Positions 16,131 through 18,884 are shown, counted from the first letter of the stretch. The stretch is 39,926 nt of DNA from Rotaria magnacalcarata (GCA_965140935.1 CBCSLL010001219.1:1-39926), one strand, 5' to 3'. Program-made: numbers and translations. The notes: generated by a model not told the origin, from the sequence alone.

Positions 16131-16236
16131 TTAAATAGATCTTTGTTTGATCTTACCTCCATCAATATCAGCTTCTCGAATCATTTGATCAACTTCTTCA
16201 TCAGTGAGTTTCTCACCCAAACTTGTCATCACATTA
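16131..16236 (-). CDS. calmodulin-like gene, exon with EF-hand 4 region ([27 protein letters not shown]...)
   Basis: Matches calmodulin [28 protein letters not shown]. The donor gtaaga at 16155-16156 suggests a further downstream exon. If unspliced, the reading frame ends [12 protein letters not shown] at 16131. Confidence 0.7.
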
Positions 16237-16288
16237 CTTTTAAAGAAGAAGCAGAATAAGTATATTTTTATGTTAGTTTTTTCCTTAC

Positions 16289-16430
16289 CAAAGTTCATCA
16301 GCTGATATATATCCATTGCCATCCTTGTCAAAGACGCGGAATGCTTCACGCATTTCTTCTTCCGAATCAGTATCTTTCATTTTACGTGCCATCAGAGTTA
16401 AAAATTCAGGAAAATCAATCGTACCATTAC
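16289..16430 (-). CDS. calmodulin-like gene, exon ([47 protein letters not shown])
   Basis: Near-identical to metazoan calmodulin residues ~60-105. Acceptor ttgttag, donor gtaagg. Confidence 0.9.
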
Positions 16431-16709
16431 CTAACAATAAAGAAAATGCAATTATACTCAATAAATATTTGTTATTTTTATATGCAAGAAAAAAAATGAA
16501 TGACGTTAGGAATAAATATATCTCGAAGTTTGATTTTAATTATAAGTGTGAGCGTCTATGTTGAATTAAAAGATAGAATTTTTTTTCTTCTTAAAATGAT
16601 CAAAACGCATAAACCAAGTCAGAGGAAAAGGGTACATAAGGGCCGATTTTGGATCATTGCCATTTTTCGTTCATTCATGGTTTATCTGATGGAAAATTTT
16701 TGACGATTC

Positions 16710-17522
16710 TGCTCACACAAAAATGAAGTGGTTTTGGCACATTTGGACCCGTTTTCTACTAGAAATATTGAGTTCATTTTCTACAGTAAAAGTGCACAAT
16801 TCGTACGTGATTCGTTGACCCCTACGAAGTTTTGTGGACAATATTATTATGAAATGAAAATCCTATCAATTAATTGTTTACTATCAGTTTAATCTCTGAT
16901 AAAAATTTCTGGCCATTCCTTCTTACTCTTTTTGCTATATCACGAGACAGAAGAAAAACAGCATGGGTTTTTAATTGATTCTGAAAGTCTGGGAGATAAG
17001 CTACAAAATCATATGTTTTTCAATTATTTTAGCAATGAATTTTGATTACTAGTGTACTCTAAGTTCAGTTAAACCTAATTTCTAGTATTTGTATTGGATT
17101 ATCTGGGAGATTCTGATCATAAAAGGTGGCACGTCCATCAAAATTAATTACAGATTTGGAATCAGCGTTGTCAGTTATCTAGTTCAGTATATCTTTCATA
17201 CTTCCGTTTTAAAATGTTTTTTTTTCGTCGGATATTGACATGAGGAAGCTCAAAAACGAGAATTCTTTTAAAACACAATCTTCCATTATGATTATGATCT
17301 CCATCGTCTCCATGAATTCCATCTCTGATCAAGAATTCGTTTTGTGTGGTAAATTCCTCTCTCTTTCAATCTGTATCTTGACGAAAAATGCATATTGTTT
17401 TCTTCTCTCTTGAGATATTGCAAAAAAAGAGTAAGAAGGAATGACCAGAAAGCTTTATCACAGATTGAACTGATAGTAAACGGGTCCAAATGTGTCAAAA
17501 CCACTTCATTTTGGTGTGAACA
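16710..17522. mobile_element. ~0.8-kb non-autonomous TIR element (MITE-like) inside the calmodulin intron
   Basis: 16710-16762 tgctcacacaaaaatgaagtggttttggcacatttggacccgttt pairs with revcomp of 17471-17522, tgttcacaccaaaatgaagtggttttgacacatttggacccgttt. That is a ~45-bp TIR with 3 mismatches. No coding capacity between the TIRs. Confidence 0.65.
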
Positions 17523-17637
17523 GAATTGGTATAAAATTCTGCATCACATAAACCATGAATTGATGAAAACTGCCAATAACCCAAAGTCCACCGTTGTGGG
17601 CCACCATTCTGTACTATTTGATTGGTTAAAAACTTAC

Positions 17638-17715
17638 CATCGGCGTCAACGTCATTGATCATATCTTGCAATTCAGCTTCAGTTGGATTTTGACCAAGAC
17701 TACGCATCACCGTAC
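17638..17715 (-). CDS. calmodulin-like gene, exon ([25 protein letters not shown])
   Basis: Identical in pattern to calmodulin 27-56. Acceptor cactag, donor gtaagt. The 1207-nt intron to the next exon contains the TIR element. Confidence 0.9.
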
Positions 17716-17766
17716 CTAGTGAATATTTAGGTAGATACATATCTAAAAAACTGAAGAATTTCATAC

Positions 17767-17863
17767 CAAATTCTTTTATTGTAATTGTTCCATCACCATC
17801 TTTGTCAAATAGAGAAAAAGCTTCTTTAAATTCGGCAATTTGTTCTTCTGTCAATTGATCAGC
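17767..17863 (-). CDS. calmodulin-like gene, exon ([32 protein letters not shown])
   Basis: Calmodulin residues 2-33 ([32 protein letters not shown]). Preceded by the acceptor ttttag, as in calmodulin genes with an intron right after the initiator codon. Confidence 0.9.
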
Positions 17864-18005
17864 CTAAAATGAATAATACTTAGGGGTACACAAAAGTTTT
17901 TCTATGCCGTTTCATCCCTATTCAACTGATATCATAATAATAAAATTTCAACAGGAATTGTTGTTATTGAAAATTTAACAAATACTTAAAGCAGATTAAA
18001 TTGAA

Positions 18006-18062
18006 GGTGTGGATGTGGGTGTCGGCATGCGCTGAAAAAGACATACCCACACCCACACCCCA
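18006..18062. repeat. telomere-repeat-like hairpin
   Basis: ggtgtggatgtgggtgtcgg - 20-nt spacer containing gcatgc - cccacacccacacccc. Confidence 0.75.
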
Positions 18063-18822
18063 TTCCTATTTGATTTATTATGCTTATAGTCCGGAAGACC
18101 TTGTATCAGCAAGGAATCAATAGATCTCTTAAAAGAAGTTGATTGTTTCTCTATAGAGACATGTTGTGAAGTCTCTTCTTTCGAAATACATACATCTTGT
18201 ATTTATATCAATCAAAGCCATCCTTTTCTTAATAAACTGTTCCTTTTTCCCTTTCAAATATTTACACCAGTTTTGAGAAAAACCATCAGATTTTTATATA
18301 AGATTACCCTGAATAAAGCTCAATTTTGCTTTTAATCACTAAATCATGTTACTTCACAGATCAATAATTACATCTAAGCACTATCAATGCTGCCTTTTAT
18401 TTAATATTATCCTGAAACATGTGTATTTTGTAGCGAAAGATTTATCTGACGTCAATATAGATTCTTTGTTGATTTTGGCACCACCCACGAATCGCCCGCA
18501 GTTTGATGTTTTGTGCTCTATTGTTTACCATACTCTTTCTACAACAACGGCTTAGCATCGGAATCAATATCAACTCAGCTGCATAAAGTATTTTGGAGAT
18601 ACGTTTACTGCGAACGAAAGACCCTTATAGGAAAATTTGTTTGCCAGTCAAGGTGTAGCTGTGGTGATGATCCCTCTTTCACTCACGCACCTTTATCTTC
18701 ATGTTATCTGTAGTTGGAAATTGGTTTTAAGGTATTGTTGAGAGGTTTTATGTTGCTGTTGATATAAATAATTCATCAATAAAATCGGGTGCTCATCATC
18801 ATTGTATAACTAGCTTTCTTAC

Positions 18823-18884
18823 CTTATCCATTTGTTCAACTGTTGTTAAATCCTTGGAATCAGCTCCAAGCATACGAATCAAAT
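18823..18884 (-). CDS. candidate upstream exon (DLIRMLGADSKDLTTVEQMDK), phase-compatible with the calmodulin exon at 17863
   Basis: Acceptor ttttcatag and donor gtaaga; phase 0 at the donor. Assignment to the calmodulin-like gene is inferred only. Confidence 0.3.

Follow-up and report, generated by a model that had tools for sequence, protein, structure and literature searches.

What kind of gene carries four calmodulin-derived exons with neither a start codon nor a stop codon of their own? The question is raised by a 39,926-nucleotide stretch of DNA from the bdelloid rotifer Rotaria magnacalcarata (GCA_965140935.1 CBCSLL010001219.1:1-39926; this whole 39.9-kb stretch is called the window, and coordinates are positions in it). 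The window has a G+C content of about 35% and short introns, and the gene features considered here lie on its minus strand, among them the four exons (a to d, together the calmodulin block), which stand between exons of a PARP4 (vault-PARP)-like gene. We put at roughly 60% the probability that the block is an exon-shuffled four-exon calmodulin cassette that forms an internal domain of the PARP4-like protein, a reading drawn from sequence comparison. We also consider it a little better than an even bet that, in one lineage of the asexual bdelloids, a vault-PARP-like enzyme gained a calmodulin-derived Ca2+-sensing domain in this way, with host splice donors re-phased twice, in the ancestor and then in the window species, to hold the reading frame.

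Calmodulin-derived exons without a start or a terminal exon

Scripted splice reconstruction of exons a to d yields calmodulin residues 2-133, ADQLTEEQ...EADIDG(G), with AG before and GT after the exons at every border. The spliced block is 92% identical, over 92% of the query, to many animal calmodulins in a protein search, and it differs from canonical invertebrate calmodulin by 11 substitutions in 132 residues. Pfam detects three EF-hands in the block, not four complete EF-hands in two paired lobes. The identity and the three Pfam matches uphold the calmodulin origin proposed in a preliminary description of this locus. That description also called EF-hands 1-3 perfect; their Ca2+-ligand positions are indeed intact, but the loops are not perfect in the strict sense, with Thr replaced by Ile at position 10 of EF1 and Ala by Asp at position 11 of EF3.

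The first exon of the block opens at Ala2 behind an acceptor, the last closes at a donor, and start and stop codons of its own are absent. EF-hand 4 reads DIDGG and then meets a GTAAGA donor, as had been described; left unspliced, the last exon would continue as GKIKQRSI to a stop. Neither a regular-expression search nor low-stringency tblastn in six frames found the canonical GQVNYEEF last exon in the window, and a match to FRKLFSQMTSK at 15461-15429 (E = 13) was dismissed as chance. The preliminary proposal that the last exon was unidentified or the fourth site degenerate therefore holds in part: EF-hand 4 is truncated, but a following exon can be named, since the DIDG donor fits the phase-1 acceptor at 14785. 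The proposal of an essential gene is not supported, nor is this a normal calmodulin locus, as all five loci with the whole or part of the block lack a start and a terminal exon and belong to one clade of a multi-copy PARP4-like gene.

The surrounding gene

In a protein search with the vWA exon just upstream of the block, a Rotaria sp. Silwood2 protein matched at 94% identity and other bdelloid sequences at 78-89%; the nearest DNA retrieved, R. magnacalcarata locus L015, is 88-92% identical to the window. In the order of the gene, the domains are PARP, VIT and vWA, linker exons, the calmodulin block, further linker exons, a segment like the HSP70 substrate-binding domain (SBD) and an MVP-ID-like C terminus (Table 1). 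The Pfam matches to PARP, VIT, vWA, the three EF-hands and the HSP70 SBD all have one transcriptional orientation. Bdelloid homologues of the downstream part carry precomputed matches to HSP70 and to PF26156 (PARP4_MVP-ID), the latter weak for the protein P0169; their UniRef name is 'PARP4 MVP-ID C-terminal domain-containing protein', and they are 53-81% identical to the C-terminal half encoded in the window. With PARP, VIT and vWA upstream, and HSP70-SBD and PF26156-type homologues downstream, we regard the surrounding gene as PARP4 (vault-PARP)-like. No Pfam match to BRCT was obtained in the open reading frames (ORFs) at 24714-24073, scanned as separate exon pieces, and a PDB sequence search with the C-terminal region returned only chance-level matches to DAXX.

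Distribution of the block among related loci

Exact-protein look-ups provided 16 related loci (L001-L016), among them those of Rotaria sp. Silwood2 (L001), a 263-kb metagenome contig (L002), a Logan contig (L013) and R. magnacalcarata CBCPNK020000008.1 (L015). The four-exon block is present only in the window, L001, L002 and L013, with exons c and d alone in L015, and was not found in L003-L012 or L014. Loci L003-L007, L012 and L014 keep PARP/VIT/vWA or the tail exon (the host exon next to the block in the window) on one side and HSP70-like sequence on the other; L008-L011 stop short of the downstream part and L016 does not reach the block region. In a neighbour-joining tree built from 741 nt of host exons beside the block, the loci that carry it group as one clade. 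As the family is multi-copy in bdelloid genomes, the calmodulin-less loci may be paralogues rather than orthologues, which leaves the argument unaffected. In L015, homology to the window starts inside the foldback insertion described below (window 16852; L015 9285-9762), upstream of which lie unrelated minus-strand genes; this locus may be a rearranged copy in decay, or else the assembly was joined at the repeat.

Splice phases at the entry and exit of the block

Our model for the origin of this arrangement is as follows. Four exons would have been copied from a calmodulin gene, leaving behind the ATG exon and the last exon; the retained internal introns indicate copying as DNA rather than a retrocopy. 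The cassette would have lodged in the linker region of a Rotaria-type bdelloid PARP4-like gene, where calmodulin-less copies hold a 123-nt phase 1-1 exon. At its exit the cassette's own phase-1 donor (DIDG G/GT, the slash marking the exon border) would serve the phase-1 acceptor of the next host exon, and at its entry an ancestral phase-1 host donor would have been lost and replaced by a phase-0 donor 23 nt further on (AxG/GTRCGT). In the window a host 'mini exon' would later have decayed, leaving a new phase-0 donor, MDK/GTAAGA at 18822, as the only open route. The predicted product would run PARP-VIT-vWA, linker, EF1, EF2, EF3 and half of EF4, linker, HSP70-SBD-like domain, MVP-ID.

The calmodulin-less loci L004 and L012 show the path without the block. 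Their tail exon (...EQMENIVHLFAS/gtacgt, phase 0) is followed by the mini exon (LGPKPEPDELL...IIATTG/gtaata; donor ACAG/GTAATA, phase 1), then by the acidic 123-nt exon X and by exon Y, both phase 1-1, and the spliced frame is open throughout. Exon X was found only in L004, L005, L012 and L014. It gave no tblastn match at E<1 in the block-bearing loci, where the calmodulin block fills that interval. A candidate remnant of exon X beside the block in L002 was dropped, its local alignment score being equalled by 104 of 500 shuffles.

In all block-bearing copies the ancestral phase-1 donor, ACA G/GT, has become ACA GAT, CAT or AAT. There the mini exon extends 23 nt to a phase-0 donor, A(C/A/G)G/GT(G/A)CGT, which fits the phase-0 acceptor of the exon that begins ADQL, and the final phase-1 donor of the block fits the phase-1 acceptor of exon Y. 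Scripted models (tail exon, mini exon, exons a to d, exon Y) keep an open frame across all junctions in L002 and L013; in L001 they do so as far as the contig reaches (the 5' junction). A second donor 4 nt downstream (GTGAGT; GTGAAT in L013) is in phase 1, so that in-frame skipping of the block is possible in L001, L002 and L013. Two public gene models made independently lend support: P0159 (Silwood2) links the vWA tail to the block and P0169 (R. magnacalcarata) links the block to HSP70/MVP-ID.

The entry differs in the window. The orthologous tail exons read ...EQME K (I/T)RK, with ATAAGA or ACAAGA at the site of the window donor, and continue for 6 further codons to a GTG(C/T)GCC donor, an intron of about 60 nt and the mini exon. 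Intact homologues of the mini exon lie at 2626-2736 in L001, 4879-4989 in L013 and 11271-11416 in L002, where it is continuous with the tail exon, and in the calmodulin-less loci at 11431-11524 (L004) and 2345-2438 (L012). The window has lost the ~60-nt intron and the first part of the mini exon, and no acceptor is able to rescue the remainder. Read without splicing, the tail exon would run on as VRKLVIQ to a TGA at 18801-18799, the first of three TGA codons in a row (18801-18793) that lie just upstream of the relic of the mini exon; the relic itself contains TAA at 18750-18748 and 18729-18727. The 3' end of the relic retains ATG AAG ATA AAG/GTGCGT (phase-0 donor at 18690) and an overlapping GTGAGT (phase-1 donor at 18686). 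A species-specific change of ATAAGA to GTAAGA has created a consensus phase-0 donor directly after MDK, at 18822, and GTAAGA is the most frequent donor in the splice model of the host gene in the window.

That the tail exon ends in phase 0 at GTAAGA had been seen before, and its splicing onto the ADQL exon, also proposed then, is probably right. The tail exon is preceded by a strong acceptor (tcattttcatag/), and the path from tail0 through the micro-exon, the tail exon, exons a to d and exon Y to a further exon at 14411-14355 is open, its product reading ...TTVEQMDK/ADQLTEEQ...EADIDG/AWQLPEFRSK.... Splicing the MDK donor straight to exon Y brings in a TAA within 11 codons by direct reading, so that inclusion of the block would be needed to translate the conserved C-terminal half from an upstream start. 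Without the predicted 18823^17863 splice, no open path joins the two host halves in the window. The tail exon had been put forward as a possible N-terminal extension of a calmodulin-like protein; it is instead a conserved exon of the PARP-VIT-vWA gene, in frame from tail0 and the micro-exon and present in calmodulin-less copies, and the 'extension' preceding the block is probably a large PARP4-like protein. Spliced-leader trans-splicing at the ADQL acceptor was set aside, as it would leave no start codon before Met36.

At the exit, G from exon d and CA from exon Y form Ala in frame with DIDG. Exon Y has homologues in L002 (12272-12460), L013 (about 6945-7163) and the calmodulin-less loci L004 (11758-11922) and L012 (2723-2884). 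The point of truncation is identical in five loci (window DIDG G/gtaaga; L001 DIDG G/gttaga; L002 DVGG G/gtaaga; L013 YVGE G/gttaga; L015 DIDG G/gtaaga), indicating that the truncation of EF-hand 4 is old and shared. All five retain the GT of this last donor. The read-through beyond it is not conserved: it amounts to 0 codons in L001 and L013 (GGT TAG), 8 in the window and 36 in L002, in unrelated sequences. Completion of EF-hand 4 by exon Y (DIDGAWQLPEF) was rejected, the residues being unconserved in L002 (DVGGAWERLVM) and L013 (YVGEEKQTIEL) and the loop spacing wrong.

Two further observations concern this region. Within exon Y, at about 14570-14519, L002 has a short intron (12461-12518, G/gtaatg...cag), and L013 likewise has a GT where that intron begins. 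The window has GA in place of the GT, with in-frame read-through (...DNGNERLKEPTGLNIFSKLEDQ...), and this stretch looks like an exonised former intron; the R. magnacalcarata model is also coding there. In L001 a tandem array of 'ggtacccatgggtcctcatgtc'-like units, absent from the window, lies at about 3870-4110, just 3' of the DIDGG donor.

Table 1. Features of the gene and of the calmodulin block, with predicted junctions
Feature	Position	Strand	Basis or remark
Host PARP4 (vault-PARP)-like gene	approx. 11731-24700	-	Pfam matches, ORF lists, orthologue architecture, UniRef names; 5' limit approximate
PARP catalytic domain (PF00644, E = 9.5e-12)	23060-22452	-	Pfam
VIT (PF08487, E = 4e-32) and start of vWA (PF00092, E = 1.3e-6)	22150-21119	-	Pfam
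Remainder of vWA	20551-19775	-	Pfam
Host exon tail0 (DIMTEMISATVEERQALQQQCLANNLIITNDE), acceptor phase 1	19187-19283	-	splice model; conserved in all L001-L014 loci covering it
Host micro-exon FGSLIKYD	19104-19126	-	splice model; matches KSLAEYD in P0159/L001 and KSMAEYD in L002
Host tail exon DLIRMLGADSKDLTTVEQMDK, ends AAG/GTAAGA, phase-0 donor	18823-18884	-	splice model, locus comparison
Decayed relic of host mini exon, in frame with tail exon	18679-18792	-	direct reading against intact homologues
Predicted junction, tail exon to exon a	18823^17863	-	GAACAAATGGATAAG^GCTGATCAATTG; right side also given as GCTGATCAATTGACA
Mini exon to ADQL junction in block-bearing relatives			AxG^GCTGATCAA
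Telomeric-hexamer palindrome (TGTGGG)n - spacer - (CCCACA)n	18008-18062	.	within 959-nt intron 18822-17864
Block exon a, ADQLTEEQ...TITIKEFG, EF-hand 1; acceptor phase 0, donor phase 1	17767-17863	-	scripted splice reconstruction
Block exon b, TVMRSLG...DVDADG, first part of EF-hand 2	17638-17715	-	scripted splice reconstruction
Foldback-type insertion, 986 bp	16623-17608	.	alignment to three empty orthologous sites
Block exon c, NGTIDFPEF...ISADEL, rest of EF-hand 2 and EF-hand 3	16289-16430	-	scripted splice reconstruction
Block exon d, ends G/gtaaga, phase-1 donor; entering helix and first four loop residues of EF-hand 4	16157-16236	-	scripted splice reconstruction
Predicted junction, exon d to exon Y	16157^14785	-	GATATTGATGGAG^CATGGCAACTAC; right side also given as CATGGCAACTACCAG
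Host exon Y, AWQLPEFRSK...AGKKKR, acceptor ttttttag/CATGG, phase 1	14459-14785	-	splice model, homologues
HSP70 substrate-binding-like domain	13277-12729	-	Pfam
Probable MVP-ID-like C terminus, ends ...IGIDHGDN and stop	stop ~11734	-	ORF list, homologue annotation

Selective constraint on the block

Comparison of the 132 codons of the block among the window, L001, L002 and L013 (Nei-Gojobori method) gave ratios of nonsynonymous to synonymous divergence (dN/dS) of 0.19-0.30 in six out of six pairs, at synonymous divergence (dS) of 0.15-0.52, and binomial tests against neutrality gave P from 6e-3 to 2e-7. Across 396 nt and 8 splice sites in these four species there was no indel, stop or splice-site loss, and the small introns vary in length. 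For the HSP70-SBD/C-terminal part of the host gene (six exon blocks, about 270 codons, in codon alignments anchored on exon peptides), dN/dS against L015, L002, L004 and L012 was 0.21-0.30, indicating that constraint on the block matches that on domains which certainly belong to the host. Such constraint is far weaker than expected of a true calmodulin, the protein sequence of which hardly varies: the copies differ from canonical calmodulin by 4 (L001), 11 (window), 16 (L013) and 21 (L002) replacements.

Alternative explanations

Several points weigh against the block being a translated domain of the PARP4-like protein. The spliced exon b/c junction had 0 exact matches when metagenome contigs were scanned for it, and the database proteins of this gene family that we inspected all appear to be unspliced genomic ORFs or predictions. 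The longer ORFs from the first vWA search (such as P0154, P0155 and P0145) cross intron boundaries, which marks them as genomic and not cDNA, and P0159 and P0169 are ab initio models, each partial and with junctions somewhat different from those of our scripted model. The phase agreement represents one ancestral event plus one in the window lineage, not many independent events. The block itself shows signs of decay, with Glu12 of EF1 replaced by Gln in L002 and L013 and a decaying EF4 stub, and after DIDG both L001 and L013 have GTTAGA, a weaker donor that gives an in-frame TAG at once if unspliced. If the parental calmodulin gene has converted the block time and again, the outcome could resemble purifying selection. 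The L015 copy is 5'-truncated, lacking the PARP-VIT-vWA half and exons a and b, and its exon Y (11700-11800) has an in-frame TGA and a 117-nt deletion. At the far end of the gene, PF26156 was absent at E<0.01 from the Pfam scan of the window sequence, and as the match was not reproduced there the MVP-ID domain is given here as probable. Finally, an ATG four codons before the phase-0 donor of the mini exon is conserved in the window (18702-18700), L001, L002 and L013, and could serve as the start codon of a separate transcript.

This ATG is the starting point of the alternative that survives best, which we nevertheless consider unlikely: a nested, stand-alone truncated calmodulin-like gene. Its first exon would encode MKIK (18702-18691) and splice to ADQL, its end would be a read-through of the last donor, and its product would have about 145 aa and three EF-hands. 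It would use a promoter of its own in the host intron or the decayed mini exon, and might coexist with, or replace, inclusion of the block in the host mRNA. The 3' end of the mini exon, otherwise decayed in the window, is still intact; read-through of the last donor meets a stop after 0 to 36 codons in these four loci; and a dN/dS of 0.19-0.30 demands translation only, not fusion. The putative first exon, however, belongs to a longer coding exon of the host, of which it forms the 3' end and which is open in the host frame in L001, L002 and L013, and the window offers only about 100 bp for a host 3' end plus a new promoter. The C-terminal read-through varies in length and sequence in every species and is hence unconstrained, whereas the GT of the last donor is preserved in five loci. 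In the window, a nested gene would also deprive the host's conserved C-terminal half (dN/dS about 0.3) of any in-frame link to the N-terminal half.

Less probable still is a non-functional relic, that is, a dead partial calmodulin duplicate in a host intron that looks conserved through its youth or through gene conversion from its parent. The missing start and stop exons and the truncated EF-hand 4 would suit such a relic, as would the degraded EF1 of L002 and L013, the decay of the EF4 stub, the toleration of the foldback insertion and of long introns, and the R. magnacalcarata copy, rearranged and with a stop codon in exon Y; the mere 4 residues that separate L001 from canonical calmodulin would fit a recent conversion. 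At dS of 0.15-0.52, however, the block has lost neither frame nor splice sites in any of the four species despite the variation in intron length, its dN/dS falls significantly short of 1 in each of the six pairs and equals the host-domain values, and a host donor has been re-phased to suit it. The model of the preliminary description, an independent gene whose first coding exon is the tail exon, with an N-terminal extension of at most 21 aa and a last exon still to be found, can point to the phase-0 consensus GTAAGA and to in-frame ATGs but is very improbable, given the strong acceptor on that exon, its frame with the micro-exon, tail0 and the vWA gene, its conservation in calmodulin-less loci, the ATAAGA or ACAAGA in place of GTAAGA in the other three block-bearing loci, and the absence of a canonical last exon within 16 kb downstream.

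Relation to known systems and significance

Compared with calmodulin itself (149 aa, four EF-hands), the block keeps 92% identity over residues 2-133, the internal introns and, in the window, the EF1-3 ligands, but it lacks the initiator exon, the second half of EF-hand 4 and the stop, is embedded in another gene and is confined to one Rotaria-type bdelloid clade. The host resembles PARP4/vPARP in having the PARP catalytic domain, VIT and vWA in PARP4 order, with homologues annotated with the MVP-ID Pfam family; it differs in that the bdelloid family is multi-copy, that every bdelloid homologue found with the downstream query contains the HSP70-SBD-like insert, that the clade of the window adds the calmodulin block, and that BRCT was not detected by Pfam.

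The calcium-dependent protein kinases (CDPKs) of plants and apicomplexans, and the calcium/calmodulin-dependent kinase CCaMK, likewise tether a calmodulin-derived EF-hand module in cis to an enzyme and are thought to be of fusion origin. CDPKs, however, have four functional EF-hands C-terminal to the kinase and a defined autoinhibitory junction, whereas the block would place three and a half EF-hands inside a PARP-family protein, and the parallel is an analogy only. By that analogy the intact EF1/EF2 lobe, with EF3, might act as a tethered Ca2+ sensor that clamps a helix, either of its own protein or of a binding partner. Patthy's phase 1-1 rule fits in part: a foreign exon block stands in place of a phase 1-1 exon, and the exit junction is phase 1. 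The block is asymmetric, with phase 0 in and phase 1 out, and for this reason the host donor had to shift 23 nt, and shifted again in the window.

We found no description of PARP4 in bdelloids or of calmodulin exon shuffling in rotifers in the literature. Exon shuffling and tethered calmodulin-like domains are well known; the present combination of domains is visible only in unnamed automated models. If our interpretation is correct, the locus represents exon shuffling with its intermediates preserved, namely copies without the module, copies with the module and a shifted donor, and a copy in which the donor has switched a second time and the bypassed exon is decaying, a series seldom available for animal genes. 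It would also provide a new combination, PARP-VIT-vWA with calmodulin-like, HSP70-SBD and MVP-ID domains, and, in animals noted for their extreme tolerance of DNA damage, tie Ca2+ signalling to an enzyme of the vault-PARP type. Should the block be untranslated, the locus would be an ordinary partial duplicate in an intron and of little importance. In annotation, it is liable to be called a broken calmodulin or a calmodulin pseudogene, or to be split into two or three models (P0123, P0159, P0169).

The HSP70-like segment

The HSP70-SBD segment corresponds to positions 375-518 of the Pfam HSP70 profile, without the HSP70 ATPase domain, and has homologues in L002, L004, L006, L012 and L015. It looks like an older domain capture into the same linker region. 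HSP70 and PARP4_MVP-ID occur together in every Rotaria and Adineta homologue that the downstream query brought up, and the module of HSP70 SBD and MVP-ID occurs in many proteins per bdelloid genome (P0170-P0197), at least 5 in R. sordida and at least 8 in Rotaria sp. Silwood1, which indicates a sizeable gene-family expansion.

Insertions in the introns of the block

The introns flanking and inside the block are long in the window, at 959 nt (18822-17864), 1207 nt (17637-16431, the length previously reported for the intron after DVDADG) and 1371 nt (16156-14786), compared with 129, 64 and 152 nt in L002. Other introns in the modelled host stretch of the window measure 47-219 nt, so that expansion is concentrated around the block. 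The 986-bp insertion and the telomeric palindrome listed in Table 1 would be later, lineage-specific insertions into two of these introns.

An inverted-repeat insertion in the 1207-nt intron had been described as an element of about 813 bp with terminal inverted repeats (TIRs) of about 45 bp. The insertion is real, being absent from three orthologous sites (L001 3387/3389; the ~64-nt intron of L002; L013 6055/6125), but it is 986 bp long and its arms are longer. One arm measures about 205 nt (17588-17384) and the other about 328 nt (16972-16645), the second being enlarged by a 117-nt segment; the two are 83.5-83.8% identical and enclose a non-coding centre of about 411 nt. The whole insert is predicted to form one hairpin nearly end to end (-324 kcal/mol, z = -12.3), with pairing to within a few nt of both ends. 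Its 3' 230 bp occur at the same site in L015 (9533-9762), where a rearrangement breakpoint falls within the element, indicating that the insertion predates the split between the window and L015.

No target-site duplication was detected; the flanks are GTACAG/ and /CTGACTTGG, compared with GTAAAG/TTGATTTGG at the empty site. By blastn there was no second copy in the 40-kb window or the first 11 loci, the sole match in the R. magnacalcarata locus being the orthologous one, and a conserved 24-mer of the arms had 0 matches in an exact-match metagenome scan. No superfamily signature was persuasive: the CAGA...TCTG termini are hAT-like at best, and an 8-bp duplication is lacking. The earlier label of a recent miniature inverted-repeat transposable element (MITE) is thus not borne out, with arms 16% diverged and the 3' part shared with R. 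magnacalcarata; 'foldback/MITE-like insertion' is a fair description. Like foldback and long-TIR non-autonomous elements, the insertion is non-coding, folds into a hairpin and is present or absent at orthologous sites; unlike them, it has neither a target-site duplication nor a second copy in the window and related loci, its arms are only ~84% identical, and it may have originated by palindromic repair instead of from a transposon.

A telomere-repeat hairpin in the intron upstream of ADQL had also been noted, and is present. Bdelloid telomeres consist of the hexamer TGTGGG (PMC7943196, citing Gladyshev and Arkhipova 2007), and near-matches to TGTGGGTGTGGG number 10 in the window against 0.01 expected by chance. 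The palindrome lies at the orthologous place in L001 (2865-2929) and is absent from L002 and L013, which places its arrival after that of the block. Palindromes of this kind are confined to the window, Silwood2 and R. magnacalcarata and occur in none of the other 13 loci, which suggests a lineage-specific mini-element or a recurrent repair scar. We rejected the palindrome as a landmark of the 5' end of the gene, as it is a separate small palindrome of a recurring type. Further copies of the form (TGTGGG)n, 20-30 nt spacer, (CCCACA)n lie at 34667-34740 in the window, 6118-6170 in L001, and 15144-15199 and 17984-18038 in L015. A second palindrome, with 63-nt arms that are 89% complementary and a 37-nt loop, occupies 15137-15299 in the 1371-nt intron between the block and exon Y. 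It also occurs in L001 and L015 (reverse-strand blastn), and its sequence is unrelated to that of the 986-bp element.

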